From an uncultured Bdellovibrio sp. (GTDB lineage: Bacteria; Bdellovibrionota; Bdellovibrionia; Bdellovibrionales; Bdellovibrionaceae): a DNA stretch of 64,000 nt. Under the pieces are notes generated by a model, which was given only the letters and a program-made list of their open reading frames with translations, ran no database searches and was not told the origin of the DNA. Numbering within the stretch: the first letter of the stretch is position 1; each line of letters opens with the position of its first letter. The DNA lies in contig CAWVRN010000004.1 in assembly GCA_963932905.1 (NCBI GenBank), positions 128,001 through 192,000 of the forward strand, in the 5' to 3' direction. The position numbers were made by a program, and so were the translations under genes. Shown piece by piece: positions 33,992-51,743 of this stretch.

Positions 33992-35560
33992 ATGATTGAT
34001 CAAGACATGAAAGAACAACTAAAAACCGTGTTTGAAAAACTAGAAGGTAACGTTGAATTGGCTGTTGATTTGAGCCAACACGCAGATCAAGCCGAACTTT
34101 TAGACTTACTAGAAGGTGTCGCTAGCACCAGTGATAAAATCACGGTCACTAAAAATTTGAATCCAGGTATGCAGTCTTTGATACCCCGTTTTAAAGTACG
34201 TCACAATGGCAAGCCCACTGGAATTACATTCTCGGGAATACCAAGTGGTCATGAATTTACTTCTCTTATCCTTGCGGTACTAAATGCGGATCACAAAGGT
34301 AAAATGCCAGACCCTATACTAGCAGACAGAATCAAACGACTAAAAGGTCCGATCAAGCTGCGTACATTTATTTCCTTAACATGTGAAAACTGTCCTGACG
34401 TAGTTCAAGCACTTAACCAAATGGCAATTTTAAATCCCAATATCGAGCACGAAATGATCGATGGCGGTTACGCAGAAGACGATGTTAAACGATTAAACAT
34501 CCAAGGCGTACCTAGTGTTGTTAGTGCTGATGAACTGATTCACTCTGGTCGTATTAGTTTCCTAGATTTGTTAGTGAAGTTAGAAAATGAATTTGGATCT
34601 AATGATGCTCCTGTCGATCAAAAACCTCGCGATCTAGGTGATTTTGACGTGGTCGTTGTTGGTGGTGGCCCAGCCGGCGTATCAGCGGCTATTTATGCCG
34701 TACGTAAAGGGTTAAAAACGGCATTGATCACGGAAAAAATTGGCGGCCAAGTACAAGAAACTCGCGGCATTGAAAATCTAATCTCTGTAACCTACACAGA
34801 AGGTCCACAATTAGCGGGACAGTTAGCACAGCATTTGGCGGCGTATCCAGTACAACTGCTGGAACATCGCCGCGTGAAAACGGTTCATAAAGACGGTTCG
34901 CCAAAACTGGTAGAACTAGAATCGAATGAAACTTTGCGGACCAAAGCATTGATTGTTGCGACGGGAGCCAAATGGCGCGAGCTGGGCGTTCCGGGCGAAA
35001 AGGAATACATTGGCCGCGGCGTTGCTTTTTGCCCGCACTGTGATGGTCCATTCTACAAAGGTAAAAAAGTCGCGGTAGTCGGTGGCGGTAATTCCGGAGT
35101 TGAAGCCGCGATTGATTTAGCAGGTATCGTGCGCGAAGTAGTCTTGATCGAGTACAATGAATCTTTGAAAGCCGATCAGATTTTGGTTAATAAACTAAAA
35201 ACGCTTTCTAACGTAACTATATTAACCAATGCTAAGACAAAACAAATTCTTGGCGATGGACAAAAAGTGAATGCGTTAGAGTTTGAAGATCGTGCTTCGA
35301 AAGAACTTAAAAAAGTGGAACTGGATGGCGTGTTCGTTCAAATTGGATTGCTACCAAATAGTCAATTCTTGAAAGACGTTGTTGAGCTGACTCCGTATGG
35401 CGAGATTGTCGTCGACAACAAGGGCCGCACGTCCACTAAAGGTATTTACGCAGCTGGTGACGTAACAACAACTCCCTATAAACAAATTATCATCGCCATG
35501 GGCGAAGGGGCTAAGGCCGGCCTGGCCGCGTTCGAAGATACGATGTTACACCACGCTTAA
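33992..35560 (+). CDS. ahpF: Alkyl hydroperoxide reductase F
   Basis: CENC N-terminal redox centre, GGGPAG, CPHCDG, GGGNSG. Confidence 0.97.
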
Positions 35561-36630
35561 TTGGAATAAAATTTCTGACACGAATTTAAAGGCTTCCTCG
35601 CTGGGGAAGCCTTTATTAGTGGTAAATAACGGTCAACAGATAAACCCGATTCTTTTAACCAAGATTCAAAAAATACGTCTCGCTGATAAGAACCTAAAAG
35701 TTCAGGAACTTTTTTTTTGAACGGAATAAATCCAGGCTGAACCTTGATCCAAGCAATTCTAGATTCAATCATCTCGGCGTGCAGAATAAATTCCGAGAAA
35801 CTTCGCACCGCACGAACAGCACGTCGTTCAAACGGCACATCGATTTCTGCAAATTGAGGCTTCTCCTGGGTGCCTGTCAAACTCACCAATTTGCGAAACG
35901 TTAGATCTTGATTACGTTTGGGATTGAACTGCGGATTTAAAAAATAAGAATGCAATCGATCTACAATGACGTTTGCCAGCTGACTAAATGACTTTATAGA
36001 TCCTGTTTCTATTAAAATTTGAATATCTTTTATACGAGTCATTAAATCAATTCGGCTGAGCGCTAAAGGCGGTGACGTATTCCAATTGCTTCTGAATACG
36101 CCCGAAGACAACTCAGGATGATTGGCATTGTCGACAAAGTAGTTAAACAAGGATCTTAAATCATAACCAAACGCGGAACGCGCTCCCGTGTTCATGTGGG
36201 TCGCGCGACTAGGACGGCTCTCTAAACCAGCCTCACGAGCCGATCCAAAAATAAGCTCTTCTTTCAAATCCTGATGAGTGTATAGTTCTTGAATGGTTGA
36301 TGGTTTGGTTTGAATTTCTACGCACAAAGGGTCATAGCTGATTTGAAACCACCAGCCATCATGCAGTTGAACAAAAAATTCTTTGCCCCACTTGCCGTTC
36401 ACTTGAGTCACTTTACATCCAAGAGCACGGCATTTTTTAGCAACAGCTTCGGCCATCTTAACAGCCGCAGGAAATTCACTTCCGCGCAACCCACCGACTT
36501 TACTTTTTGAATCCGCAGCATAAATTTGATCGCTAGTGAATTCGATTTCACCGCCATGGGTGATCCCTGATTCGACAAGAATTTGTGCGTTGGAAATAGA
36601 AAGGAAAAATAGCAGCCACAGGATACGCAT
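35557..36630 (-). CDS. Secreted hypothetical protein, possible amidoligase/glutamine-synthetase-like fold
   Basis: Signal peptide from ATG 36630; GGEIEF, DP..VEIQT, THMN, ERR motifs. Confidence 0.45.
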   Translation of the reverse strand: MRILWLLFFLSISNAQILVESGITHGGEIEFTSDQIYAADSKSKVGGLRGSEFPAAVKMAEAVAKKCRALGCKVTQVNGKWGKEFFVQLHDGWWFQISYDPLCVEIQTKPSTIQELYTHQDLKEELIFGSAREAGLESRPSRATHMNTGARSAFGYDLRSLFNYFVDNANHPELSSGVFRSNWNTSPPLALSRIDLMTRIKDIQILIETGSIKSFSQLANVIVDRLHSYFLNPQFNPKRNQDLTFRKLVSLTGTQEKPQFAEIDVPFERRAVRAVRSFSEFILHAEMIESRIAWIKVQPGFIPFKKKVPELLGSYQRDVFFESWLKESGLSVDRYLPLIKASPARKPLNSCQKFYSN

Positions 36631-36704
36631 AAGGCGACGAGTATAGCATGACGAAAATACCATCAAAACTGTAGACTTTTAAACAGATAGCCGTTTTTGG
36701 GAAC

Positions 36705-36769
36705 TGACCTGCTCCCTTTCATGAGCCAGACTATCTTATTTTCTGGCTCGAGTTAAGGGGAGTAGGTCA
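36705..36769. mobile_element. 65-bp IS3-family-like miniature element (two abutted terminal IRs)
   Basis: TGACCTGCTCCCTTTCATGAGCCAGA ... TCTGGCTCGAGTTAAGGGGAGTAGGTCA; TG...CA ends; no transposase. Confidence 0.7.
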
Positions 36770-36779
36770 AGGCCAGATC

Positions 36780-37199
36780 ATAGATTTGAACTGGCAGCAG
36801 GTAAATTTGGAGTCTAAAGAAGTTTCATTTCTAAGAACTTTAAAATCACAATCTCGAAAAATGAGAATATCTGACGAGTTAGTTCTAATATTAGAAAAGA
36901 GAAAAAAGACCAATGGATACGTCTTCATGACTTATTACAAAGAACCATTTACTAAGCCTAAACTAGCTCGATTGGTAAACGAATTCAAAATCAAAACGCG
37001 TTGTGAAATCCAGTGGACTCTCATGGATCTAAGGCATTCCTTTGCTGTTAATTATCTTCGATCTGGAGGAGATATTAGAAAACTTCAGTACTCACTAGGG
37101 CATGAAAATATATACGATACCAAGCGACTTTATTCTGAAGCGATCATCAAAGCTGATTCGAAAACAGTCGAATTAAGCCCATTTGAAATCGGATCTTAA
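36780..37199 (+). pseudogene. Tyrosine recombinase C-terminal fragment, copy 1
   Basis: DLRHSFA...LQYSLGH....T..LY; 5' part replaced by the IS3-like scar. Confidence 0.8.
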
Positions 37200-37311
37200 A
37201 TCGTACAATTTGCAGTGCAGGGATCACGGGCGGCCCAGGATCCGGGCCCCCATTTTTCGGGTTTAGTCGAGAATTTTGGTAATCTTTTGGCCAAAGTTTG
37301 GCCACGAATTT
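37200..37311 (+). repeat. Conserved ~110-bp post-integrase repeat, copy 1 (att-like)
   Basis: Aligns to 40671-40782; GGATCACGGGCGGCCCAG.ATCCGGGCCCCC and TGGCCAAA-G-TTTGGCCA. Confidence 0.8.
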
Positions 37312-37347
37312 AAACAAAGTGTTTGTTTGGAAAATGCGACGCTTCGC

Positions 37348-37575
37348 TCAGCGCACTATTGGCCCTGAGGGAGAGCTTCCATTTCGCAAAAAAAAGTAAA
37401 TCGAAATTGCCCCAAGAAGAACACTTGAAATTCCAAAAGCAATCCATTCCCTATTCCAAATGGACCAAAGTAAAATAATACTTACAATAAATGAAAGGAA
37501 TGAAAGAATATTTTCAATCCTTTTACGCTTTGGATTCTTGCTTTCTTCAATCGGTTTCTCCGGAACAATCTTCAT
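37348..37575 (-). CDS. Putative immunity protein (2 TM), cassette 8
   Basis: Starts 9 bp after the RHS-tip stop; two hydrophobic helices. Confidence 0.65.
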   Translation of the reverse strand: MKIVPEKPIEESKNPKRKRIENILSFLSFIVSIILLWSIWNREWIAFGISSVLLGAISIYFFLRNGSSPSGPIVR

Positions 37576-37584
37576 ATCACCACC

Positions 37585-37970
37585 TTATGGAATAGGAGCC
37601 ATGTACAAACGTTTACATACGTAACCCATAGCTCTATAAGCAGCTACCTCAGCTGCCTTAGATACCGCAATATTAATTACAGCAATCTCCGCTTCTGTTT
37701 TTGCATCTTTTCCACACATGCCAGGTTCAAGCCCACGCGACTCCCGTTGACTTCGATCAGACTCCGCATATGCTTCTGCAGCAGCACCTCTACCTACACC
37801 TGGTGTAGCTATAGAACATAAAAAACCTGATACAGGACCGGTGCCTTCAGCATCTATAAAGTTTATCGGATCCTGCAACACATATCCATACAAATTCGTA
37901 TCCCCACCCTCAAACAAAATCGGATCTTTACTCGTCCATCTCCCCGTCTCAGGATCATAATGTCTGTATG
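37585..37970 (-). pseudogene. Orphan RHS core end + C-terminal tip, cassette 8
   Basis: [39 protein letters not shown] + unique tip; RHS homology stops near 37970. Confidence 0.85.
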
Positions 37971-38344
37971 AAGTATTGAAGCAAAATGCTTCACTTGAAT
38001 GTTTCATAGTTATTTCAATATCTTCTCACTTAGATTCTGTTTTTTACAACCGCCAAATTTTTTGCATTTTGGGAATATTTTTTTAGTTTTGGCCAAAATC
38101 TGGCCAACGAAATTCGAATCCCGGTGCGCAATACTCTCAAATCTGCAGTTTTACCTATATCAATTTAGTGATCTTGGTATTCTATGGTGATTGATACTTA
38201 AAATAATTTCTCTGTATAAAGTGGGGGCTATGTCTGACTATTAACTTTCCAAAGTGCCATTTTTAGGCTATATTGGTGCGCTATAAGCCAATATATTGCT
38301 TTACGTTGGGTATAGCAGTTGCAATTTAAGTTTTTGGAGATTTT

Positions 38345-38554
38345 ATGACTTCACAACATGAAGAAAAAAATAAGCGTCTTGAAATCCTTAAGCAAGAAGA
38401 GAAAATTATTTCTGAGCTGAATGACACTTCAGAACTAAGTGAACGACTTAATAAGATTAAAGAAAGTCATAACCGCAAATATTCAATTAATGACGAAGTT
38501 CAAGAAGAACCTGTTAGAAAAATTGCTATACCAGAAAACGATAATTCAATTTAA
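38345..38554 (+). CDS. Small charged protein, possible partner/antitoxin of the PIN protein
   Basis: GGAG RBS; ends 8 bp before the PIN gene. Confidence 0.55.
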   Translation: MTSQHEEKNKRLEILKQEEKIISELNDTSELSERLNKIKESHNRKYSINDEVQEEPVRKIAIPENDNSI

Positions 38555-38562
38555 GATTAACC

Positions 38563-39288
38563 ATGATATACAAAGCTCAAGATGTACTACTCGATAGTGC
38601 TAAACGCATTCTCGTAGACTCAAATATCATCGTTGCCTATTTCGATGAAAAGCATAAGTTTCATAAAGAAGTTTTTGATAGACTAAATCCAGTATATTTA
38701 AACGGAGCAAGTTTTTTCTATGTTCAACCATGCCTTTTAGAATTTAAGGAGTATTGGCGTAGAAAAAAACTAACAGAATGTATTGAAGAAATGATCGGAA
38801 AAGAGTTCTATTTTTTCAGAGAGTTTCGAAAGTTATATAATAAATTTCGTACCGACAATCAAAATCAAGGTTATGAGTACTTAAGTGATCGACAAATCAA
38901 AAATCTTCGTGGCACTCTTGAAAACATACACAACAATAAAGGATTAAACTTCTGGTTCGATTTAAGCAATGTTGCATTAACAGGAACTTTATCCAACTTA
39001 GAAAATCGATTATCTAAATCGAAATTTATCTACGCCAAATTTGATGACAATAATCTTTTTCCAATATCAAACAAACCAAACTGGCCTAAGTGGATTGACG
39101 CTGATTTGGCCCAGGAAAAATTTTGTTTAGCAGCTAACGATGCGGCGATCTTGAATATGACAAACAATGCATTTAACATTGACTCATTTATTTCAAATGA
39201 CGGAGACATGCTGTTTGCGGTTAGCAACGGTGCGCTCAAACATCAAATTAATACATATACTTTTTTAGATAACTCAAACTTTATCTGA
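38563..39288 (+). CDS. PIN-domain protein
   Basis: ILVDSNIIVA..D..HKFH, E, NDAAI, ISNDGD acidic quartet. Confidence 0.75.
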   Translation: MIYKAQDVLLDSAKRILVDSNIIVAYFDEKHKFHKEVFDRLNPVYLNGASFFYVQPCLLEFKEYWRRKKLTECIEEMIGKEFYFFREFRKLYNKFRTDNQNQGYEYLSDRQIKNLRGTLENIHNNKGLNFWFDLSNVALTGTLSNLENRLSKSKFIYAKFDDNNLFPISNKPNWPKWIDADLAQEKFCLAANDAAILNMTNNAFNIDSFISNDGDMLFAVSNGALKHQINTYTFLDNSNFI

Positions 39289-39315
39289 ATTCTAAATAGG
39301 TATTACTATATAATT

Positions 39316-39480
39316 TTACTTACCTCTATTGCAAAGCTCCTGAGCATTTGGCTCATCTTTCCGGCACATGTTATCAACAGAATCCCAGCAACCCCCTCCG
39401 TCTAAGCAAGCGTCTTTTTTCTCACAGCTAAGAGATAAAAAAATTATTGATAGCAACAAAATTTTAACTAAATTTTTGGA
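39316..39480 (-). CDS. Small Cys-rich lipoprotein, probable orphan immunity gene (start uncertain)
   Basis: Manual translation SKNLVKILLLSIIFLSLS-CEKKDACLDGGGCWDSVDNMCRKDEPNAQELCNRGK*; only TTG starts available. Confidence 0.5.
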   Translation of the reverse strand, partial: SKNLVKILLLSIIFLSLSCEKKDACLDGGGCWDSVDNMCRKDEPNAQELCNRGK

Positions 39481-39518
39481 ATGTTAAATTTCTTTCCGTT
39501 TGAATGTTTGTTAGGGAA

Positions 39519-40055
39519 TTATGAGTATGTTTTTATCCAATCATCAATTTGGTTTTGCAAATCCTTGTCTTGCCACTCAAAATAAAAATTGCCGTCAAGG
39601 TCTTTCTTGTATTGCAAATTAGTCTTTGGCGGCACATTGCTAGTAGTGCCTTCTTTCAACTCAAGGCCAACTTTTTTAGAAAACAAATCTGCATATGCTA
39701 AATGATCATTTGGGTAAAACCTTGTACTCGCCATTTGTTGATTGAAAAATGTGATTGTCAGAGTTCCCTTAATTCCTAAATGCTCATAGTTCTTAATTTT
39801 CCAACTCAAGATGCTAAATGCTGGCCTAGTATCTCCGTTTTCTAGTTTACTATCTTCGATGACTTCAACACTATAGTTTGCATTTTTTAGAATGTCTTGC
39901 GCCTGAGCTGGGTTCATCAAACTAGAGAATGGATCAACTAATTCGGTCTTGATCGTAACGTTGTTTTCTGTGTAGCTAGGTCTATAAAAATAAAATAGTG
40001 ACGCCACAACAAATATAAGAAATCCCACAACAATTATTATTTTTTTATTTTTCAA
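39519..40055 (-). CDS. Putative immunity protein (N-terminal anchor), cassette 7
   Basis: TTG 40055 preceded by GAGGAG overlapping the stop of an upstream remnant ORF. Confidence 0.6.
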   Translation of the reverse strand: MKNKKIIIVVGFLIFVVASLFYFYRPSYTENNVTIKTELVDPFSSLMNPAQAQDILKNANYSVEVIEDSKLENGDTRPAFSILSWKIKNYEHLGIKGTLTITFFNQQMASTRFYPNDHLAYADLFSKKVGLELKEGTTSNVPPKTNLQYKKDLDGNFYFEWQDKDLQNQIDDWIKTYS

Positions 40056-40065
40056 AGCGATCTCC

Positions 40066-40187
40066 TCAGTACCCATTTGAGCCCGTTACCGGCGTGGTAG
40101 TCAATATGCCATTAGTAAGTGAACTCATGCACTTCTGCGAGCAAGTTCCTGCCCCTGCAGAGTTACCTCCGTGGTAGCTTCCGGTAG
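40066..40187 (-). pseudogene. Probable toxin-tip 3' remnant, cassette 7
   Basis: Open frame TGSYHGGNSAGAGTCSQKCMSSLTNGILTTTPVTGSNGY* abutting integrase fragment 2; RHS core missing. Confidence 0.4.
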
Positions 40188-40670
40188 CATTATTATTTCT
40201 ATCCAATTCTAAAAATATTTTCAGAATCTGGAGCAAAGCTCTGCGAAATCATCGATTTAAATTGGCAACAAGTAGATCTGGAAAATAAAGAAATAACATT
40301 TCCTAGAACCATCAAATCGCAATCTCGGAAAATAAAGATTTCAGACGAACTAACTTCAATTCTAGAAAAGAAGAAAGAAGTAACTGGATATGTTTTTAAA
40401 ACTTATTATAACGAGGCGTTCAGCAAACCTAAACTGGCCCGACTGGTTAACGAATTTAAAATCAAAACAAAATGTGAAATTAAATGGACGTTGATGGATC
40501 TAAGACATTCTTTTGCTGTTAACTTTCTTCGCTCGGGTGGAGACATTAGAAAGCTTCAGTACTTAATGGGGCACGACAACATTTACGATACAAGGCGCCT
40601 ATACGCAGGTGCTGTCGCAAAAACAGACTCGCAAGTGGACACTTTAAATCCGTTTGAAATCGGGTCCTGA
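40188..40670 (+). pseudogene. Tyrosine recombinase catalytic-domain fragment, copy 2
   Basis: Not in ORF track. Manual: YPILKIFSESGAKLCEIIDLNWQQVD...MDLRHSFA...LQYLMGHDNIYDTRRLY...NPFEIGS*; close paralog of copy 1; no upstream start. Confidence 0.85.
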
Positions 40671-40782
40671 ATCGTACAATTCGCAGCGCCAGGATCACGG
40701 GCGGCCCAGTATCCGGGCCCCCATTTTTTGGGTTTAATAAAGAATTTTGGTAAACTTTTGGCCAAAGTTTGGCCTCGGATTT
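40671..40782 (+). repeat. Conserved ~110-bp post-integrase repeat, copy 2 (att-like)
   Basis: Aligns to 37200-37311. Confidence 0.8.
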
Positions 40783-40841
40783 TGAAGTAATAAAGCTATT
40801 TTTAAAAATAGCTTTATTACGTGCGCTCACTATGGCTCAGT

Positions 40842-41147
40842 CTAGTGGATCACAGAGTTTGGCGGTTGCTTGATATCCGGAATTTTATATATTCCAAAAC
40901 CAATTAACAATACTCCAACAAAACAAAGTACATAGCCCAATATTTTTTCATAATGAATTAGTTCATCGGCACCACCACCAATTTTTTGAACTATATCCAG
41001 ACTTGCAAGTATTGGAAAAAATAGAAGTATGCCTCCGCAAAGACCAACAACAATTCCTAAAAATATTAATTTTAGTCCACCCTGACTTTTATTTTTAAAG
41101 TTTTCTATATTATCAATTTGCGGTTTTGGAGGCACAATCTGATTCAT
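40842..41147 (-). CDS. Putative immunity protein (2 TM), cassette 6
   Basis: ATG 41147 after AGGAG overlapping the upstream remnant stop. Confidence 0.65.
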   Translation of the reverse strand: MNQIVPPKPQIDNIENFKNKSQGGLKLIFLGIVVGLCGGILLFFPILASLDIVQKIGGGADELIHYEKILGYVLCFVGVLLIGFGIYKIPDIKQPPNSVIH

Positions 41148-41155
41148 AAATTCTC

Positions 41156-41400
41156 CTATGGTGTGAAAGGGCTTAACATCAAAGCAAGACATGCCTTATA
41201 ACCAAATTTATCAATGGCATATCTAGTTGCTCCAGTTGCGGCAGACTACGCCGCTAGCTTACCAACCTTTCTCATAAATCCTGCTTTAACCGTATCATCG
41301 ATATGATCGATGATACGAATCAACACTTACACGAAATCTATCGAGGGTTGCCTATCGACTAAGAGTGCCGGTCTCGTGCTCCATAGCTCCTAACGGCCGT
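41156..41400 (-). pseudogene. Degenerate RHS cassette 6
   Basis: Leader VRSYGARD then foreign sequence; tip ...KLAA*SAATGATRYAIDKFGYKACLALMLSPFTP* with internal stop, resembling the cassette-8 tip end. Confidence 0.6.
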
Positions 41401-41481
41401 TTCTGGCCGTCAAAAATTAGGGACTACAAAGCTTTAGTTAACAACTATCACAACTGGTTTTATGCTTGCTTCCTTCTTAAA

Positions 41482-41607
41482 CTACTTTTCTTCTGCAAGA
41501 ATTTGCTGATCAGAATTTTTATAAAAACAAGATTTAACCACTACTGTAATGGCAATAGTGGTAACAAAAATAAGTGCATATATGATAATTTTTTTCTTAC
41601 TACTCAA
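41482..41607 (-). CDS. 41-aa single-TM putative immunity protein, cassette 5
   Basis: Manual: MSSKKKIIIYALIFVTTIAITVVVKSCFYKNSDQQILAEEK*, TTG after GGGAG. Confidence 0.5.
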   Translation of the reverse strand: MSSKKKIIIYALIFVTTIAITVVVKSCFYKNSDQQILAEEK

Positions 41608-41659
41608 GCACACTCCCTTTCCAAAAATATTCTTACAACCTATATTATAACTAATTTAT

Positions 41660-42040
41660 CTATGCGGGACATTTATTAATTGGCTTTGGACGTCCAGGCC
41701 GAGGAAATCGATCTGGTTGTCTTGTTTTAGGAAGCCTCTCAATTTGTGTTGGGGGACCATTGATAAATTCATCCCATCTAAGCCTCCACTTTAAGGTGTA
41801 AGTCATTGGATCTTTAAAATAATCAACTAATTCCTCACCAATTAGAAGCCCGGTCCCAACAACTATAGGAACTATAATAAATGGATTCAGCCCACTCGGA
41901 TCTGTAAAGTTCACAGGATCGTTCCAAGTATAACCGTAGAGATTAGTATCAGCACCTTCAAACAAAATGGGATCCTAGCTCGTCCATCTCCCCGTCTCAG
42001 GATCATAATTCCTGGCACCAAAGCCTCTAACGGCCGTATC
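41660..42040 (-). pseudogene. Orphan RHS core end + tip, cassette 5 (in-frame TAG at 41975-41977)
   Basis: [36 protein letters not shown]...DPSG + tip. Confidence 0.85.
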
Positions 42041-42089
42041 ACAACACAATATTTTCAAACTCAAAAAAGAAAACGGCCGATCTCGGCCG
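42031..42089. repeat. Inter-cassette spacer D
   Basis: Junction CGGCCG, 37-bp gap, CGGCCG-N4-CGGCCG hairpin. Confidence 0.8.
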
Positions 42090-42135
42090 CTAAAAATAAT
42101 TTTGATACTAATTGCTTTAACTATTTTAAAAGAAA

Positions 42136-42558
42136 TTATTGGAGTCTATTTAAAACAAAAACAACTACCAAAGAAACAACAAAAACAAATCCAATAGCTA
42201 TAGCAACCAAAACAAAGGGATGTACTCCTAATCGATCTATCTTATATCCCTGATTGTTATAATTTCTAATTAAACCTACTAAACGCTCCCGGGCACTTTT
42301 TCCTCCAGCATTCCAGATATCATCACTTTGAGCCTGCACTATAAATTTTGTTTTATTTGGATATTTTACCCATGAGACCCGTACCTTAACACGCTGAAAA
42401 CCATACTTTACTACGCCCTCAAAAAAGTGTTCCTGCTCATTACTAATTTTTCCTAATTTCTGAAGGGCGGCCTTAGCTACTTGCAAACTTGTTGCAAAGT
42501 CTTGTTGAGTCTCCACTTCTCCATTTCCTAAATCTACAAAATCCATATTCATCCCCAT
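42136..42558 (-). CDS. Putative immunity protein (C-terminal TM), cassette 4
   Basis: Directly after the tip stop. Confidence 0.65.
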   Translation of the reverse strand: MGMNMDFVDLGNGEVETQQDFATSLQVAKAALQKLGKISNEQEHFFEGVVKYGFQRVKVRVSWVKYPNKTKFIVQAQSDDIWNAGGKSARERLVGLIRNYNNQGYKIDRLGVHPFVLVAIAIGFVFVVSLVVVFVLNRLQ

Positions 42559-42563
42559 TCAAA

Positions 42564-42944
42564 TTATTTGTCTAATATTTGATCGATGTTGCTTTTACCA
42601 TCATCAATGATAATAGGTAAAAGTACCTGACCCGCACCTATAGCAGCACCAAGCGCGGCACCCGCTATCATCCCTGGGCCAGAGCCAGCCGGCAAACACA
42701 TACCAACCGTCGCTCCAGTAACTCCGCCAATTACAGCCCCTTTAAACGCTCCTTTTCCTGCATCTAATATATCTCTAGAGGTTATTTTCCTCAACCCATC
42801 TGGATCAATAAAATTCACCGGGTCCTGTAGCACATACCCATACAAATTCGTATCCCCACCAGCAAACCCAATCGGATCCTTCGAAGTCCACCGTCCAACC
42901 TCAGGATCATAATCCCTGGCTCCGAAGCCCCTAACGGCCGTATC
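42564..42944 (-). pseudogene. Orphan RHS core end + glycine-zipper tip, cassette 4
   Basis: [24 protein letters not shown]...DPDG then GA..GA.IGG..GA..G zipper. Confidence 0.85.
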
Positions 42945-42994
42945 TCCTTAAGGAAAATCGAACTGGAAAATTAAAACGGCCGCTTTCGCGGCCG
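42935..42994. repeat. Inter-cassette spacer C
   Basis: Junction CGGCCG, 36-bp gap, CGGCCGC-TTTC-GCGGCCG hairpin with A/T flanks. Confidence 0.8.
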
Positions 42995-43055
42995 TTTTAA
43001 TTATTTATGCATCAACTATCTTAACTGACTCCGATAGACTAGAATTTAAATTGCA

Positions 43056-43346
43056 TTAGAATATTTCCTTTTCTAAGAATAAAAATAAGAGACTAACAGC
43101 AGTCGCACTAATCATTATTAGATAGCCTAAATAATACAATTTTTTCATTTCTGGAGTCATTTCTCTTGCTCCAAAACTTACCCAATTGCCTTTTTTGAGA
43201 ATCGAAATTTTAGCCCTGAAAAACAGTACAAAACCAACAATGAAAATCAGTGCTAACTGCACTCTAAAATTTAGTGAAAGCAAGGCGCCACAAATCAAAG
43301 GTCCATAAAAAATTGCTGCGTTAAATTTAGCTGACTGTGGGCCCAT
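43056..43346 (-). CDS. Putative immunity protein (3 TM), cassette 3
   Basis: AGGAG RBS directly after the tip stop. Confidence 0.7.
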   Translation of the reverse strand: MGPQSAKFNAAIFYGPLICGALLSLNFRVQLALIFIVGFVLFFRAKISILKKGNWVSFGAREMTPEMKKLYYLGYLIMISATAVSLLFLFLEKEIF

Positions 43347-43357
43347 ATTTTCTCCTT

Positions 43358-43780
43358 TTATATTCCTGGAACTGGGGGAACTGTATTACCCGGATTAACC
43401 ATGCCACATCGGTATCCAGCACCTGCGACGCCTTTCCAACCACCGTAGCTACTGATAAGCGAATAATTTTTATCGTACTCATCATATAAGGGATCATTTA
43501 ATTTATCTGCCTCGCATTTTCCCTTAGTAAGCTCATTGTACTTTATTTTAGTGTATAAGACAGCATTTCTGGCCGTCAATGCCGCAACCAAGGCATAATT
43601 ATTAATTGACCCAATAACCATACAAAGCTTTCCATCTGGGTCGATATTATTCACCGGATCCTGCAAAACATATCCATACAAATTCGTATCTCCACCCTCA
43701 AACAGTATGGGATCTTTCGAAGTCCACCGCCCCGTCTCAGGATCATAAGCCCTGACTCCAAAGCCACTAACGGCCGTATC
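43358..43780 (-). pseudogene. Orphan RHS core end + tip, cassette 3
   Basis: [24 protein letters not shown]...DPDG + tip. Confidence 0.85.
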
Positions 43781-43830
43781 TCATTCAGGAAAATCGAACC
43801 GCAAAATTAAAACGGCCGCGTTTGCGGCCG
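43771..43830. repeat. Inter-cassette spacer B
   Basis: Junction CGGCCG, 36-bp gap, CGGCCGC-GTTT-GCGGCCG hairpin. Confidence 0.8.
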
Positions 43831-43872
43831 GAGAACTACTTAGGTATCAACTATCTTGATTGGCTCCGTGGC

Positions 43873-44049
43873 CTAGTTTTGTTTCTCAATAGCTGGTGCT
43901 ATTTTAATCTTATCTCTTAGCTCTCTTTCTGTTTTATCTGTCCTATTAAAATAAAAAGCTTTAAGTAATGCGAAAAAGAAAACCAGCAGGCAGAATATCC
44001 ATATCCACAATCGTTCATTTTTTTTAAAACTATTTAAAAGCCTTCTCAA
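43873..44049 (-). CDS. 58-aa single-TM putative immunity protein, cassette 2
   Basis: Manual: [61 protein letters not shown] overlaps the tip TGA; GGAG RBS. Confidence 0.6.
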
Positions 44050-44444
44050 GAATTCTCTCCCCCATGATAGCTGTTAGGATACCCTTTTGGCGGTCTAAGT
44101 CTATGCCATTTAGGCATCGGAGTAGATTTTATTTTTTTAGGAACAGGACAGGTTCCAAAGTTTCTCGAATCGTTCTCTATTTCGTTAAACTCACCTTCGC
44201 CAAAATTATCTCCCAAAATTGTTCCAATGTAGTCTCCTAAAAAATATATTCCAGGTAAGATAATAGGTGCCAATATCGGCCCAACGGCTGCTTTCCCCTC
44301 AGGATCAATTAAATTCACCGGATCCTGCAACACATATCCATACAAATTAGTATCACCGCCATTAAATAAAATAGGATCTTTCGAAGTCCATCGACCAGTC
44401 TCAGGATCATAATCACGGCCGCCGAAGCCCCTAAGGGCCGTATC
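44046..44444 (-). pseudogene. Orphan RHS core end + tip, cassette 2
   Basis: [24 protein letters not shown]...DPEG + tip. Confidence 0.85.
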
Positions 44445-44497
44445 CCGATACAACAATTCCAAAACTCACAAAATAAAAACGGCCGTTTTCGGCCGTT
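44435..44497. repeat. Inter-cassette spacer A
   Basis: Junction GGGCCG, 39-bp gap, AACGGCCG-TTTT-CGGCCGTT hairpin. Confidence 0.8.
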
Positions 44498-44560
44498 AAA
44501 AATAATATTCGAAATCAACAATTACTTTTATATTCTTGGGCCACGAAAACTCACTAAAAA

Positions 44561-45034
44561 CTAATTCTTAAAATTTATATTTTCAAAAACTGAAGTTAGC
44601 TGATGCTTTTCCAGTTCGCCCTTGTCTTTTTCATCGGCAACAAATTGCATTTTCTTCGCTTCTTCGAATAATGGTTGAATCTTCTCCAACTGATTTGGCG
44701 AATTGTTTCGCTGATTCTCTCTGGCGACCTCTATACCTTCGTAAAACAGCCACACTTCAATAGTAGGAATTTCTTTTTGAGGTACAGTTTTGTAAATTTG
44801 CTTCGCCTTTTCTATATCCTGCTTGACGCAAAGGCCTCTGGCGTAGAAAGACGCAAACAAATATGCTGCCTCATTGGAAAGATAGACAGCACGTTTAGTA
44901 TTTTCGAAACTTTCGCAATACTCACCGTCTTCAAACTCATGCCTGCCTTTTTCTTCAAAATGAGAATACGTAAGTCTATAAACTACGAATAAGCTAAAAA
45001 GCGAAATTACAGTGCCTATTATAATTTTTATCAT
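44561..45034 (-). CDS. Putative immunity protein with Sel1-like repeat, cassette 1
   Basis: N-terminal TM; A.Y..A.FY..G.CVKQD.EKA; overlaps the RHS stop. Confidence 0.7.
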   Translation of the reverse strand: MIKIIIGTVISLFSLFVVYRLTYSHFEEKGRHEFEDGEYCESFENTKRAVYLSNEAAYLFASFYARGLCVKQDIEKAKQIYKTVPQKEIPTIEVWLFYEGIEVARENQRNNSPNQLEKIQPLFEEAKKMQFVADEKDKGELEKHQLTSVFENINFKN

Positions 45035-46683
45035 TATAGTCCTACCTCAATTGTATTATTTCCGTCCTCTGCACCCAACAGATTATTTATATTACTTAAA
45101 TCTGTTTCTGATGAGTTTGGATCTCCTGTTATGCAACCATTGGAGCCACCTTTCCTCAAGTGTAATAAAAAGTCTCCACCGTTTTGTCCTAGTTTAAATC
45201 CAATTCTAGAAAATAATCCAGGATCTAAAAACCAATCTCCAGTCTTTAAGCCTGGTAGCTTCCTAATATCATAAGTGCCTATTGGGATTGGACCTAAAGG
45301 AGAACCAGTTGCAGATGGTTTATTTTTAAAGGTTCCGGCGCCACTAAACATCTGCGACATGTAAGAAGTAGCACCATCATTACTAGTACAATTTAGTTTA
45401 CCACTAGTAATTGAGTAGCTACATTTCGCCAACCCCATCGGATCAATATAACTCATCGGGTCCCCGCCGACATACGCATACAAATTCGTATCCCCACCCT
45501 CAAACAAAATCGGATCTTTACTCGTCCATCTCCCCGTCTCAGGATCATAATCCCTCGCCCCAAACCGAACCAATTTCGTGCTCCAATCGGCTAGCCCCCC
45601 GGCAAAGCCAATTGCCAGCTCGCCGCTTCGATTGTCTTGTAAAACTTTTCCAAATTCATCGTATTCAATTCTTTGAATTATGGATCCGTCACTGCCCTTT
45701 ACTACCATCACCGGGCTGCCCAATAAATCTGTAACTATTTTGTAATTTACGCCGGCTTCTATATAGTAATCAGGCGCATGGGATTTCGTTGCGTAAACGT
45801 ATCTTCGTTTTAAACTTCCGTCGGCATTTAGTTCGGCAACTAAACGACTCTGTTCCCATAAATAGCGTCTAACAACCACCCCGTTTATCTTGCGACTGAC
45901 TCTTCTGTTTAGTCCATCAATATCGTAGTTGATTAACGTTCCATTTTCTAACTTGACTTGAGTTAAATTCCCGAGCGTATCATAGACGTAACTGGCCGTT
46001 TGATTGAGCACCGTATTTGTTTTGCTTTGTAGCTCTCCGTCCGCGTTATAGGCAAAGGTGCTAGATCCAAAGCTAGACAGACGATCTTGCGTGTCATATG
46101 CCGCTGCCGTCGTGCTGGGTGGGCTTGCGATCTGTGCAGAGGTTCTATTCCCGTTATCATCATAGGTATATTTTCTGATCCACACCGATGATAAATATTG
46201 GATTTCCTTTAGGCGGCCGCGATTATCATAAATATATTTATAGGCTTTAGTTGGCCAACCGCTGACTGTGTAGGATCGAGTCAAAATACGTCCCAGATTA
46301 TCGCGCGTCAGGGTTTCGCTATACAGATTGGCGCTTCCGCTTACAACTGTCCGCCCAGTGATTTCTGCAAAATTATTTGTCGTAATGTTTTCATCAATCA
46401 AACCAAGCGTGGTCTTGTTCAATATTCCATTCGGAGCAGATGAATAAAATAAGTTTAAACTTCCGGCTTGGGTCAGTTGTTCATCATCGTTATAGACATA
46501 AGGCAGAGTTTCAATTGCCCCCGCGCCCACCTTTAATTCAAAGCTAGATAGTTTTCCTTCTGATGCAAAATACTTTTTACTATAAGCCGTGACACTGCCG
46601 TGCTCAAACGACTCTTTACTGACATAGTCTCCTAAATACTCATACCTTGTTACAATACCACTTGGTCCGGTGACACTAGATAT
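45034..46683 (-). pseudogene. 5'-truncated RHS/YD-repeat protein with Tlde1 (DUF2778)-like tip
   Basis: YD repeats, [14 protein letters not shown]...DPMG, tip FSG..GPIP.G.Y...LH...SNGCIT; frame stays RHS-like to ~46683 with no proper start. Confidence 0.85.
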
Positions 46684-46979
46684 TCAAGGAGCCAGTTCTT
46701 ATTCAATTCAATACCTGTTTTTTTGAAGAAAATCAGAGGCGATGATAAACTCTATTTACGAAAACTTCGATCATTGCTTTATTTGTAGAAACTTAAACTC
46801 GATCTGACACTTCCCACAAGTGGTTTCGATTTTATCAGACAACCGGAAAGAATGGCCAATATTTACAACATATTCGACTGTCAATTTCTGGAGGTTCTTT
46901 CCAGTAAACTTGGGTCATAAAGTCTTTAAATTCATAATCGAGAAGTCTAACATTAGAAGATTTATGGAGACGCCAATCA

Positions 46980-48170
46980 TCAGAAATTGTTGGTGGCGCC
47001 AGCATCCTTTCTCTCTCCTGGTTTGCCCGGGCTCTCATCCTGAAACAGAGTTGTATATCGTTTACGAATCCCCAAGTTGTATCCAAACCTGAGTCCAACA
47101 CGCAGATTGTTATACGCTGAAAGGTCCTTTACTTGGTCCCGAATTGTCTGAAAAGCGAGACCGTATAACGGCTTCAAATCCTCTCTCGTCTGATTAAGGG
47201 AGCCTCCCACAAAGGTCTGTACAATAATTGATCTAGTAGTGTTTGAGTTATTAGAAAACGTGTTGTCCGTCACGCTCGTTAGGTTAAATTTTCCAGTGGA
47301 TTCCATCTTGTTCCGAATATCTAACAAAGTTGCGATATCTGGATTCCTTTTGACCGCTGTAAAGCTCCATAGTCCTACTAGTATAATAACTGCGGAAACA
47401 GCTCCAGCAATGGCTATTGCCTTTTTTGTTTTCGCTGGATCGTCTAAAGAGGCCAAGGCCGTTGCATTAAATCGATCATGGTACACAACAATCGAGTTAG
47501 CTATGAGATCGTGGAGTCCGCGCTTCAGCGGGTGTAGCGGCAAAAACAAATAGCAGCCAACAACTCCAATGAACCACATCGTACCAATAATGGAATCGGC
47601 CGTCGTAGAAAGCTCTGAGCCCACTAACAAATTGACGACGCCAGAAAAGACGCCGATGTATCCAACGAAGGCGATGATCAGATATCTCAAGAAAGATTTA
47701 ACCAGAGAAAGGGGTTCGCCATTCATATTCAAAACCTGAATACCCAAAATTCGCTTACCGAGGCTTTGGCCGTTACCGAAGCTACTTTGCGAAGGTACAA
47801 AATATGCGATTGATACTAGTAGCCCAAGCCACACGCCATGCTCGCCCAGCTTCACAAACAAGTCCTCCAGTCCAAAACTGAGCACCATCGCGAAAGTCCA
47901 GAGAATTGCTAAATCGATGACATCGGCAACGACTCTTATCCAAAACCCAACAACCAGTTTTGGCACCTGGCTTTCCACAGGCGGAGTTATTTGAACTTCG
48001 TTCCACAACCCTTTTTCCTTCCGTGTCTTAATTTCAACTAGGCACGCTTCATAGTTTGCTGGGAACTTATCTTTATTTATTCTACCCAAAGAGGCAATAA
48101 GTTCGCCTTGAGGTAACGTCGAGAAGTCTATAGTGCTACTAGTTTTTTCGTCCGTCAATTTCTCTCCCAT
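46980..48170 (-). CDS. RDD-family membrane protein
   Basis: GFWIRVVADVID, GQSLGKRILGIQV, RGLHDLIANS.VV. Confidence 0.85.
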   Translation of the reverse strand: MGEKLTDEKTSSTIDFSTLPQGELIASLGRINKDKFPANYEACLVEIKTRKEKGLWNEVQITPPVESQVPKLVVGFWIRVVADVIDLAILWTFAMVLSFGLEDLFVKLGEHGVWLGLLVSIAYFVPSQSSFGNGQSLGKRILGIQVLNMNGEPLSLVKSFLRYLIIAFVGYIGVFSGVVNLLVGSELSTTADSIIGTMWFIGVVGCYLFLPLHPLKRGLHDLIANSIVVYHDRFNATALASLDDPAKTKKAIAIAGAVSAVIILVGLWSFTAVKRNPDIATLLDIRNKMESTGKFNLTSVTDNTFSNNSNTTRSIIVQTFVGGSLNQTREDLKPLYGLAFQTIRDQVKDLSAYNNLRVGLRFGYNLGIRKRYTTLFQDESPGKPGERKDAGATNNF

Positions 48171-48328
48171 ATCAATGCCAGTTTGGCGACAGCATTAACA
48201 TAAATTACAAAAACGCTCAACGTCGAATTGAGTTCGAGCGTATCGACTGACGTAATATTAATGATCAGTTCCTAAGCGAAAGAACTACAAACTCACTTTT
48301 ACTGGAATATGTGCCTTATTCTTTCTAT

Positions 48329-48355
48329 AAGTGTCCAACTTAAAGGATATCAACA
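48329..48355. mobile_element. Possible solitary IS3-family end
   Basis: Reverse complement TGTTGATATCCTTTAAGTTGGACACTT fits the TG...GGACA pattern of IS3-family IRs. Confidence 0.3.
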
Positions 48356-48480
48356 ATTCGGCCTTTATAGCACCCGTCCTCGAGTGGATTCCATGTTATA
48401 CAGGTGCCTTGGCTCAAGACGAGGGGTGCAACCTTACCCATATCGGGGACAGTATCCACCCCCCGGTGCTTTATAAAAAA

Positions 48481-49302
48481 TTAATCTCTGGCGATCAAAG
48501 CGTTTGCTAGTAATTTAGCGGCCTTCTTTGCGGTTTCTACGTTCGGGTGGATACCGTCACCAATATGGGTGAAGTTTTTCCATACGTCCACCTGGATAGC
48601 GTTAGGAAGTTCACTTTGGATTCTGTTTTTATATCGATTTCTTAATTTGTTGTAAGACGTCTGATCGATAACCCATGGAAGGCCAAATGTGTTTTTGAAA
48701 TGATTTAAATCTAGGTCATTGTATTTTGGGTAATTATCAAAAACAGGCGTCAGCCCCATAGAAATCACCGATTGTCCCACCGCGATCATGCGATCAATCG
48801 ACTCGTCGATTTGTTGTAGCGTGCAGGGAGTCGTTAGACTCTGCGGCTGATCAAAGGCACCGGCATGGAGACAATCATTTGGAATGGTAATTACAACATA
48901 CTTTGCACCGAACGAAGAAAAGGTAGGCGGAGCTAGAACACGTGGCAACGCTTTGTTAAACATCGTCAAATAGCTGTCCCAACCCGGTGACTGGCAAGTC
49001 GTTGCATTGCAGTCTTGACGAGCAAACGATGTTGCACCGGCTTGACCTTCATTCACTACAAATCCCGGAAGAGATTTTTCTCGAACAAGTGCATCCCCTA
49101 AGCTCAGGTAGGCGCTACCATTTACAGCTGTGCCTCCCAATGGAGCCGATGCGCCCGTATACGGAGTCTTTGCGCTCGCATAGGAAGCCCCAATCACTAT
49201 CAAAGGTTTTTGTGAATCCACCACGGCATCAGCAGTTACGGGTAGTAGTCCGAGCGTTAGCCCCAGTAAAGCGTATTTATTGAAAATTCTATTTTTTAAC
49301 AT
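48481..49302 (-). CDS. Secreted SGNH/GDSL hydrolase
   Basis: Signal peptide, IGASYA, GQAGATS, ND, DGIHP. Confidence 0.8.
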   Translation of the reverse strand: MLKNRIFNKYALLGLTLGLLPVTADAVVDSQKPLIVIGASYASAKTPYTGASAPLGGTAVNGSAYLSLGDALVREKSLPGFVVNEGQAGATSFARQDCNATTCQSPGWDSYLTMFNKALPRVLAPPTFSSFGAKYVVITIPNDCLHAGAFDQPQSLTTPCTLQQIDESIDRMIAVGQSVISMGLTPVFDNYPKYNDLDLNHFKNTFGLPWVIDQTSYNKLRNRYKNRIQSELPNAIQVDVWKNFTHIGDGIHPNVETAKKAAKLLANALIARD

Positions 49303-50843: not shown

Positions 50844-51743
50844 ATGAGCGGATATTGGACAGACACAGCTTCTTTCATCGATGCGCATCTGGGCACTGGA
50901 GGCGCCGTCTGTGTGGCCCTGATTGACGACGAGATGGCTGCCCATAACGTGCCTTTCACAAGCGTGACCTGCCTTTATCAGGGCAACTGGCTTGATGGCG
51001 GCACGTTCAAGTGGGACACAGCGGCCGTAACACGATGCCAATTACCCGTGCCGCAGTACGCGATCGTCGGCGTCAATGGACAGGTGCAGTTTGTGGGCAG
51101 TGGCGACATGCACGAAGAACGCATCGCCGAGGGTGTGCTTGCCCCCCCGGCGGGCACAGGTCTGGTGCGCGGCGCACGCGCCATCGAAGGTGTGCTCTAT
51201 GTGTGCGGGATGAAGCGACAGGTCTTCCGCCGCGAAGGGCGCGAACAGTGGCGCTGTCTCACTGCTGCAATTCCTCAGGAACGGGGCGTTGTAGGTTTCG
51301 AGGCCATCGATGGCTACACCCACAGCGAGATCTATGCCGTTGGCTGGGAGGGGGAGGTCTGGCATTTCGATGGCACGAATTGGAACCAGTACGATACGGG
51401 TACCAATGTCATTCTCCTAGATGTGGTGTGTGCAGGTGACGGCATCGTGTATGCGATCGGCCGAGGACGCAAACTGGTCATTGGGCGCGGTGCCCAGTGG
51501 CGCACCATCGACCTGAACCTGTCGGTCGAGCTGTCAAGCATCGCCTGGTTTGAAGGCAAGCTCTACGCCTGCTCGACGCGAGATATCTTTGTGTGGGACG
51601 GCTCGCTATTCAACCCTTTGGTGATTGAGGGTGACCGGCCTCGCACCATCCAATATCTGAATTCTGGCGAAGGCGGTTTGTGCGCTGTAGGGCCTAAAGA
51701 TCTCTTCCGCTTCGATGGGTCGACCTGGTTCAGGATCGATTGA
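50844..51743 (+). CDS. High-GC beta-propeller (WD40/YVTN/BNR-like) protein
   Basis: Repeated YAVG..G...FDG..W units; ATG 50844 after GAAGGA; GC far above flanks. Confidence 0.7.
   Translation: MSGYWTDTASFIDAHLGTGGAVCVALIDDEMAAHNVPFTSVTCLYQGNWLDGGTFKWDTAAVTRCQLPVPQYAIVGVNGQVQFVGSGDMHEERIAEGVLAPPAGTGLVRGARAIEGVLYVCGMKRQVFRREGREQWRCLTAAIPQERGVVGFEAIDGYTHSEIYAVGWEGEVWHFDGTNWNQYDTGTNVILLDVVCAGDGIVYAIGRGRKLVIGRGAQWRTIDLNLSVELSSIAWFEGKLYACSTRDIFVWDGSLFNPLVIEGDRPRTIQYLNSGEGGLCAVGPKDLFRFDGSTWFRID

Follow-up and report, generated by a model that had tools for sequence, protein, structure and literature searches.

Rhs proteins carry a core domain that ends in PxxxxDPxGL ahead of a variable tip, and the displacement of their C-termini (Rhs-CT), together with arrays of orphan Rhs-CT/immunity units, is reportedly the subject of work attributed to Jackson in 2009, Poole in 2011 and Koskiniemi in 2014. 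In the orphan arrays of enterobacteria, the 5′ ends of the orphans vary from unit to unit. Another kind of array, the recombinase-associated acquired interbacterial defence (rAID) cluster, is said to have been introduced by Ross et al. in 2019. Here we analyze a window of 64,000 nucleotides from an uncultured Bdellovibrio sp. (assembly GCA_963932905.1, contig CAWVRN010000004.1, positions 128,001 to 192,000) which holds, between 36705 and 46683, an Rhs polymorphic-toxin array with the relics of a tyrosine-recombinase element, and we describe how that element is associated with Rhs arrays in Bdellovibrio-like bacteria.

The route by which new effector-immunity modules enter Rhs, contact-dependent growth inhibition (CDI) or type VI secretion system (T6SS) loci is unsettled. 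The available part of the rAID literature describes clusters in Bacteroidales in which a tyrosine recombinase accompanies orphan immunity genes that all point the same way and are separated by conserved intergenic motifs (PMC12247911). For the T6SS arrays of Vibrio cholerae, the accessible text reports that new modules are added while old immunity genes are kept and notes a likeness to integrons, and, within those sections, it states that there is no evidence for an integrase that facilitates the insertion of effector-immunity modules (Kirchberger 2017, PMC5361080). The models in the literature consulted here invoke homologous recombination and rare, homology-facilitated illegitimate recombination.

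Results

The array consists of a 5′-deleted rhs gene followed by six orphan tip/immunity units, all on the minus strand, and the core end recurs six more times downstream of that gene. On the plus strand, facing the array, are two diverged fragments from the 3′ part of a tyrosine-recombinase gene (int1), each with a tail of ~110 bp. A small open reading frame (ORF) with no Pfam family follows most orphans, and we take these ORFs to be immunity genes, the toxin and immunity roles being putative and assigned by position. A first-pass annotation had already recognized the truncation of the rhs gene, and indeed its frame is open only from 46683, with a TGA before it, and matches the last third of the shell profile. 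Of the seven co-oriented units which that annotation counted, six are clear orphans, and a seventh is reached only if a lone YdcD-like ORF is included. The recombinase fragment and its repeat do occur twice, at 36777-37311 and 40248-40782, and both copies carry the C-terminal part of Phage_integrase, although the limits originally given for the fragment need correction, as copy B reaches back to residue 137 and copy A is cut at residue 196. The two segments share 76.3% identity across 536 nt (E 8e-108), and no other copy exists in the 4.55-Mb assembly. The locus is a degenerating one, and for the window itself the biology is modest: a decayed remnant. In what follows, G000 is the genome of the window, other G numbers are family genomes, L numbers are int/Rhs loci and X1 to X4 are public sequencing runs.

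Relic B (40044-40774, plus strand) contains int1 residues 137-343 (40044-40670), with 4 stops before about residue 197 and an open frame afterwards, followed by a terminator (40703-40719), a P′ arm and a palindromic site (40756-40774). Relic A (36753-37303, plus strand) has the same order, with int1 residues 196-343 (36753-37199, open), terminator (37232-37248), P′ arm and site (37285-37303). Both fragments lack the N-terminal half of int1, and copy A lacks the Arg-I region as well. Between the two relics dN is 0.16 and synonymous sites are saturated; int1 of relic B is 78% identical to the int1 of G009 and 74-75% identical to relic A. This divergence, together with the fact that B is nearer to G009 than to A, indicates two separate acquisitions and not a local duplication. 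We found no homologues of int2, Mom/HTH or p154 in G000. Both recombinase genes are dead in this genome and, since it holds no intact recombinase, only homologous recombination can act there now. The notion that the open int1 frames encode a working mini-protein was discarded, given that the N-terminal half is missing, int2 is absent and the divergence (dN about 0.12-0.16, synonymous sites saturated) resembles that of two old functional lineages.

Intact versions of the element are present in relatives. In a search of the genus, int1 matched 2 of 10 genomes, G000 included, and the homologue in G009 is full-length; across the family, 9 of 182 genomes have int1 homologues at E ≤ 1e-30. The intact element was found in four related genomes (G009:C130, G123:C261, G042:C49, and G118:C104). 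In the first three it measures ~5.6 kb and encodes, in this order, a ~154-aa protein, a MobC/Replic_Relax-like protein, a Mom-domain protein, int2, and int1, while G118:C104 carries a diverged version of 11.25 kb. The Mom-domain protein has, by eye, a C-terminal tail that resembles a helix-turn-helix (HTH), a part that matched no family. The recombinase genes form an Xer-like tandem in which int1 (343 aa) is the last gene of the module; int1, int2, and the fragments in the window all match PF00589. The position of Arg-I is occupied by Lys in 21 of 21 int1-type sequences (ET[AG]AK; genes of L006, L024, L025, L075, and L084-L104) and by Arg in 11 of 11 int2 sequences, a difference that points to asymmetry within the pair, one member of which would be unusual or non-catalytic. 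At L084 (3009-6136) there are three tandem recombinases, int2 plus two int1-type copies. In the 11.25-kb element, two small overlapping ORFs immediately within the palindromic site on the right (L075, 14291-14882) resemble, by eye, a toxin-antitoxin pair of the BrnT/BrnA type.

In each intact element, int1 meets an Rhs tip with its downstream ORF head-on. The check that the first-pass annotation had proposed, a search of related genomes for an intact recombinase beside Rhs arrays, thus turned out positively in G009, G123, G042, and G118 and in most metagenomic orthologues, and the repeated linkage that it had pointed out is neither chance nor the product of local duplication. Relics also lie inside the Rhs arrays of G009:C150, G009:C152, L029, G021, G040, and G041, and consist of the site, a P′ arm of ~85 nt that includes the terminator of int1, and a piece of the int1 3′ end that varies from 8 to 207 codons. 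In G068, a recombinase of the G118 type, cut by the contig end, is head-on to an Rhs core end. A scan of metagenomes yielded 79 loci, 31 with int1 at no less than 44% identity and 48 with more distant integrases (<44% identity). Among the loci with at least 1 kb of downstream sequence, a head-on Rhs core end occurs within 5 kb in 18 of 24 int1 loci vs 1 of 35 distant integrases; among those with at least 250 nt downstream, 19 of 26 int1 loci have the palindromic site no more than 400 nt away, and 0 of 44 distant ones do. Two of the six misses in the first comparison (L096 and L105) have diverged Rhs sequences by eye, which brings the count to 20/24, and the other four are three glycine-rich or DPxG-bearing ORFs at a contig edge and one insertion sequence (IS) insertion. 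Most metagenomic loci are short contigs from related organisms, and several are not independent: L091 is the window sequence or near it, L101, L110, and L102 repeat G009 and L029, and the pairs L086/L088 and L092/L093 are near-identical. The link between the recombinase element and Rhs arrays is real and is conserved across several genera of predatory, Bdellovibrio-like bacteria.

The element ends in a GGCC-N7-GGCC palindrome, and the same site heads one type of orphan cassette, which we call class II. Conservation after int1 among seven loci stops exactly at ..TTTTGGCCAAAGTTTGGCCACG, and conservation ahead of class II tips, in three loci, starts at the same palindrome. The site is a near-perfect palindrome of 23 nt, and the int-side and class II copies share GGCC-N7-GGCCAAAA plus about 45 further nt, which gives a site of ~65 nt. 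On the int side it is found 90-170 nt after the int1 stop, in fixed orientation. Only 3 exact copies exist in the 4.55-Mb genome. When we searched 182 family genomes with a 19-nt version of the site, allowing ≤2 mismatches, 73 matched and controls with the reversed pattern were comparable; usable matches are those with 0-1 mismatch or those beside int or Rhs genes. The 11.25-kb element of G118 is flanked by repeats that share a perfect 29-nt block at the site, with unrelated left flanks and right flanks that are ~78% alike, and this identity block between differing flanks is the pattern that a site-specific crossover would be expected to leave.

We also tried a half-site rule, in which GGCCAGA marks the far side and GGCCAAA the int side (P-type and B-type); it held for G000, G123, L088, L097, and L090, failed for G009, and was dropped. 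Just upstream of far-side sites in G009 there are matches to candidate defence genes, PDC-S21 in L079 (G009:C22, 8148-9239, 1e-111) and PDC-S67 in L007 (G009:C150, 3000-3548, 6e-54), so that the element or cassette system may carry defence genes too. L079 comprises a site, a leader, and a decayed class II tip, with the PDC-S21 gene as its left flank; we weighed it as an empty attB, but that gene may itself be cargo of the element.

The class II cassette of the window (tip6; 37348-38105, minus strand) begins with the site at 38105-38087, followed by a ~80-nt leader, an ATG at 38007, a tip that extends to 37585, and an ORF at 37575-37348, and it has palindromic sites on both sides. Its 5′ module, composed of the palindrome GGCCAGATTTTGGCCAAAA, the leader with its own ATG, and a join to the core end at ..RHYDP.., is conserved far outside the genus. 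In 8 loci, YDP follows the site after 144-158 nt. The junction reads (S/R)HY(D/K/N/S)P in ten loci, namely three of G009, two of G118 and one each of G000 and G021, plus L089, L090, and L097, and a Pro is found at the corresponding position in G123 and L088. Over 82 nt, the core ends of class II and of the main gene are 97.6% identical, vs 76-86% for the other orphans, as would fit a recent exchange of sequence between these two. In L089 (1300-5400) each cassette ends in a conserved element of ~70 nt (GGAAAGTCTATTAGTAGCGATT..), and an int1 relic is fused to this element at a shared GGAA(A/T)GTCT, possibly a secondary recombination site within the int1 gene.

The remaining five orphans, which we call class I, have in common a 5′ module of ~200-240 nt, in which a hairpin resembling a terminator is followed by a spacer and by the final ~45 codons of the core. 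Each module runs from a G+C hairpin of 7-8 bp through a T run and a spacer of ~30 nt into GATACGGCCGTTAG. In agreement with the five units at a common motif that had been annotated, we found five copies of GATACGGCCGTTAG(G)GGCTT with ≤3 mismatches; they lie within 3.1 kb and are all the copies in the genome (4.55-Mb assembly). The motif is the in-frame counterpart of DTKLVRFGAR, a genuine core sequence, and three of the hairpins are listed by a terminator scan. The same hairpin, spacer, and junction head an orphan with a different tip in G002, another species of the genus, and that tip equals, by eye, the tip on a main Rhs gene in G009.

All class I units are on the minus strand. Orphan 1 (43873-44497) has its hairpin at 44497-44478, its junction at 44444, a tip ORF at 44462-44046, and a downstream ORF at 44049-43873. 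In orphan 2 (43056-43830) these are at 43830-43813 and 43780, with the tip extending to 43358 and the downstream ORF at 43346-43056; in orphan 3 (tip3, 42136-43002), at 43002-42977 and 42944, with the tip to 42564 and the ORF at 42558-42136. The tip and immunity type of orphan 3 are, by eye, those of the main tip of a full-length Rhs in G021. Orphan 4 (41486-42091; hairpin 42091-42072, junction 42040, tip to 41660) is a pseudogene with an in-frame TAG at 41977-41975 and a small membrane ORF downstream. Orphan 5 (40842-41403) is a decayed stump with no tip left, where the hairpin arm is fused directly to the junction by a deletion between two ACGGCCGTT copies, and where the membrane-protein ORF at 41192-40842 is taken as the immunity gene.

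Strain variants of the array were looked for in public runs. Six runs from three studies hold parts of the window and four of them (X1-X4, two studies) were compared, all as low-depth Logan contigs. The joint 45476>37887, found in X1 and X4, which come from different studies, connects the class II leader and core end to the main tip (tip0) and falls within 75 nt that fit both sides. One X1 contig carries the joint 42890>45541, from the main core to tip3, a weak case with only 27 nt on one side, and X2 and X3 have loose ends at 42914 and 42916 from which tip3 runs upstream into genuine core sequence. A further candidate in X2, the joint 42044>44461, was rejected as a deletion because its side of 43 nt and 12 replaced letters make it too weak. 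The strain variants are explained by homologous recombination in the core-end homology. No joints at the three palindromic sites are listed for X1-X4 and X2 has no cover over 43018-45522, and neither counts as evidence, as Logan contigs drop rare variants. The crossovers in X1-X4 say nothing about the palindromic site, because this lineage has no intact recombinase.

The main rhs gene (45034-46683, minus strand) ends in a Tlde1-like tip (tip0) and retains the last ~415 residues of the YD shell, core end included, the N-terminal two-thirds being absent. It matches TEN_YD-shell (PF25023, 9e-29, profile positions 597-870 of 909), the YD repeats RHS_repeat (PF05593, 3.7e-9) and TIGR01643, and Rhs_assc_core (TIGR03696, 74.6 bits vs a cut-off of 32.5), and its translation reads ..GGDPMSYIDPMGL.. 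at the core end, before the variable tip. The window's copy is not a full-length gene with an N-terminal secretion or delivery region. In contigs of runs X2 and X3 the Rhs frame stays open beyond 46685, and the window's gene is therefore 5′-deleted relative to those strains. Tip0 is the only tip with a domain match, Tlde1 at 28.3 bits, below the cut-off of 30.1. Its presumed immunity gene (44561-45034, minus strand, 157 aa) is assigned by position and matches nothing in Pfam or NCBIfam; together with the main tip it occupies 45440-44561. In locus L089, a look-alike of this gene was seen by eye downstream of one of the cassettes.

Between relic B and the class II cassette lies what may be leftover interior or cargo of the element (38345-40076), with three ORFs: 40076-39519 on the minus strand, and 38563-39288 and 38345-38554 on the plus strand. 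The first is the lone YdcD-like ORF (29.4 bits, below the NCBIfam cut-off of 65), which matches nothing in Pfam or PADLOC. The other two, of 69 aa (38345-38554) and 241 aa (38563-39288), have no Pfam, NCBIfam, or PADLOC family, and the lost element may have carried this pair as a cargo module. At the other end of the array, a miniature inverted-repeat transposable element (MITE) of 65 nt (36705-36769, inverted ends TGACCTGCTCCC../..GGAGTAGGTCA), derived from an IS3-type end, truncates relic A, closes the array, and sets the first coordinate of the locus. G000 has two more copies of it, C17:77732-77789, which forms one end of an IS3-type element, immediately upstream of where its transposase gene starts, and C13:78820-78884, which is solitary like that of the window. 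No Rfam families were found within 35000-48500, and promoter-like sites at the locus show no excess (33 vs 29.8 in shuffled sequence). Elsewhere in the window, the G+C content of 51000-51499 is 0.61, vs about 0.40 around it.

Discussion

We propose that this array twice received, and has largely lost, an Rhs-associated integrative element, and that its tips are exchanged by homologous recombination, an account to which, as a whole, we assign a probability of about 0.68. The element would integrate site-specifically at the ~65-nt site inside Rhs arrays and would either bring a class II cassette or land beside one, after which a homologous crossover in the shared core end could move the tip between cassette and main gene. 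Deletions within the element would be tolerated and those reaching into the neighboring immunity gene selected against, so that relics of the site, the P′ arm, and a variable 3′ end of int1 would be left behind. Class I cassettes, in turn, would spread, exchange, and be lost via homologous recombination between their shared 5′ modules. Taken by itself, the step of site-specific integration is one that we lean toward on the anatomy of these loci. Among the explanations offered by the first-pass annotation, that of a mobile element family tied to Rhs cassettes fits, because the palindrome marks both the end of the element and a cassette type, and because the element family is discrete.

Several observations weigh against this account. 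The central 7 nt of the site differ between the int side and the far side (AAACTTT vs AGATTTT in G000, and likewise in G123, L088, L097, and G021), which is unlike simple attL/attR products with a shared overlap. At L088 (3821) the site heads a non-Rhs ORF at a promoter-like distance and in G009 it borders the candidate defence genes PDC-S21 and PDC-S67; it could thus serve as a promoter or operator, instead or in addition. Given the invariant Lys at Arg-I, int1 may not be a catalyst. An int1 fragment in L030 has no Rhs within 10 kb, and the counts of loci overstate their independence because many come from related strains or from the same projects. The read evidence consists of short, low-depth Logan contigs, one joint having a side of 27 nt. 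Finally, we found neither an excised circle nor an empty site, nor a pair of occupied and empty sites.

The differing central nucleotides also feature in the argument that the 3′ flank of Rhs arrays is simply permissive for mobile elements and that the palindrome is a promoter or operator of the cassette genes. The location of the site about 105-130 nt upstream of start codons, that of the non-Rhs ORF among them, and the presence of MITE and IS pieces at these loci would agree with such a coincidental hotspot. Nevertheless, we consider it quite improbable in view of the specificity of the association (18-20 of 24 loci of the int1 clade vs 1 of 35 of other integrases), the fixed orientation and distance of the site 90-170 nt after the int1 stop, and the 29-nt identity block with diverged flanks in G118; moreover, the int-side site coincides with the point where conservation stops and lies downstream of a convergent gene, a position in which a promoter serving int1 would make no sense. 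Less likely still is that the recombinase recognizes the hairpin, the spacer, and GATACGGCCGTTAG and moves class I cassettes, that is, the site-specific capture at the junction motif that the first-pass annotation had put forward, and we regard this as very improbable. It is true that the five copies in the window are all the copies in the genome, that the module is kept in G002, that ACGGCCGTT occurs in both the hairpin arm and the junction and one unit has suffered a deletion between the two, and that the stems pair despite two-sided changes (CGGCCGC/GCGGCCG vs ACGGCCG/CGGCCGT). Still, stems of 7-8 bp rich in G+C and followed by T runs look like intrinsic terminators, the motif is the in-frame homologue of the core sequence DTKLVRFGAR, and the module, which elsewhere has no recombinase gene as a neighbor, differs from, and is unlinked to, the palindromic site that marks the ends of the element. 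The refutation that the annotation itself had named, crossovers spread through the Rhs core, speaks against the junction: the variants of X1 to X4 break within the YDP..LYGY homology, and the single joint near the spacer is the X2 joint with the 43-nt side and 12 replaced letters.

Taken in its strong form, the proposal of the first-pass annotation would be a platform similar to an integron, in which int1 and int2 capture and excise discrete cassettes at palindromic sites that act like attI/attC and arrays grow stepwise. The window cassette at 38105-37348 is bounded by sites at both ends, in L088 one non-Rhs ORF is enclosed by two successive far-side sites at a distance of 1.1 kb, in G118 a cassette lies between the site and int1, and in L089 3.6 kb of extra cassettes, with a common conserved 3′ element, separate a full int1 and site from a relic; in addition, the 23-nt palindromic site could fold as a hairpin. 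Set against this, we saw no circular cassette and no two strains whose arrays differ by exactly one cassette, int1 converges on the array instead of diverging from it, and models of integron integrases score far below their cut-offs (53.5 vs 265 bits). The int1-bearing relics within arrays are better accounted for by insertion and decay of whole elements, and the strain variants observed are homologous crossovers. We therefore hold this platform to be unlikely. A related and bolder idea, an "Rhs integron", is doubtful too, if slightly more attractive: int1/int2 and the GGCC-N7-GGCC site would form a cassette system dedicated to toxin tips as discrete mobile units, each cassette consisting of the site, a leader with a start codon, a core end of ~45 residues with an autoprotease motif, the tip, and the immunity gene. 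The recombinases would insert such cassettes beside Rhs genes and a single homologous crossover in the core end would then arm them. If true, the acquisition of toxin tips would be driven by a recombinase and would not be a rare illegitimate event.

Returning to the integrative element that we favor, its association with these arrays hints that a dedicated recombinase helps to bring in new toxin tips. A conserved, Rhs-tied recombinase element with a candidate site and a defined cassette type makes the question of tip acquisition directly testable.

Comparison With Known Systems

The locus resembles the arrays of C-terminal displacement in that a main rhs gene is followed by co-oriented orphans, each with a piece of the core end and a presumed immunity gene, and in that exchange is homologous and takes place in the core end. 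It is unlike them in that five of the orphans of the window begin at one exact 5′ border with a hairpin and a spacer, in that one orphan type has a non-Rhs leader and its own start codon, and in that a recombinase element adjoins the array. Orphans with variable 5′ ends do occur in G021.

Elements with tandem recombinases include Tn554, with TnpA/TnpB, and the recombinase-in-trio elements, and integrative mobile elements exploiting Xer (IMEX) make use of Xer recombinases. As in these families, the element described here has two adjacent Xer-like recombinase genes (three in L084) at the end of a small element and an orientation-specific insertion. To our knowledge, the set of Mom/HTH and MobC-like genes, the Rhs-array target, and the invariant Lys of int1 are not features of the Tn554, trio, or IMEX families. 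With integrons (IntI, attI, attC), the locus shares cassette-like units beside a tyrosine recombinase and palindromic sites at cassette borders. The recombinases, in contrast, score far from the integron integrases (TIGR02249, 53.5 for int1 and 76 for int2 vs a cut-off of 265 bits; NF011946, 30-41 vs 435). There is also no divergent integrase with an attI, int1 being convergent and the class I hairpins terminator-like. Unlike attC, the palindromic site is at the 5′ side of class II cassettes and comprises a palindrome of ~23 nt within ~65 nt.

We found no description of an Rhs-associated recombinase element in the literature that we searched, a search outside of which most subscription journals lie. 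In the T6SS arrays of Vibrio cholerae, going by the accessible text of PMC5361080, no integrase was implicated, unlike here, where the arrays are physically linked with one specific recombinase element. The nearest analogue of the recombinase link is rAID, with a likeness that, judged from the available part of PMC12247911, concerns architecture only. Compared with the clusters as that part presents them, the array of the window consists of Rhs toxin tips with core ends and not mainly of immunity genes, belongs to a different phylum, and is met by a tandem recombinase pair in a ~5.6-kb module that also holds Mom/HTH and MobC-like genes and is convergent with the array (PMC12247911). If recombination at the palindromic site proves true, it would extend rAID-like arrays from the immunity genes of Bacteroidales to toxin tips in another phylum.

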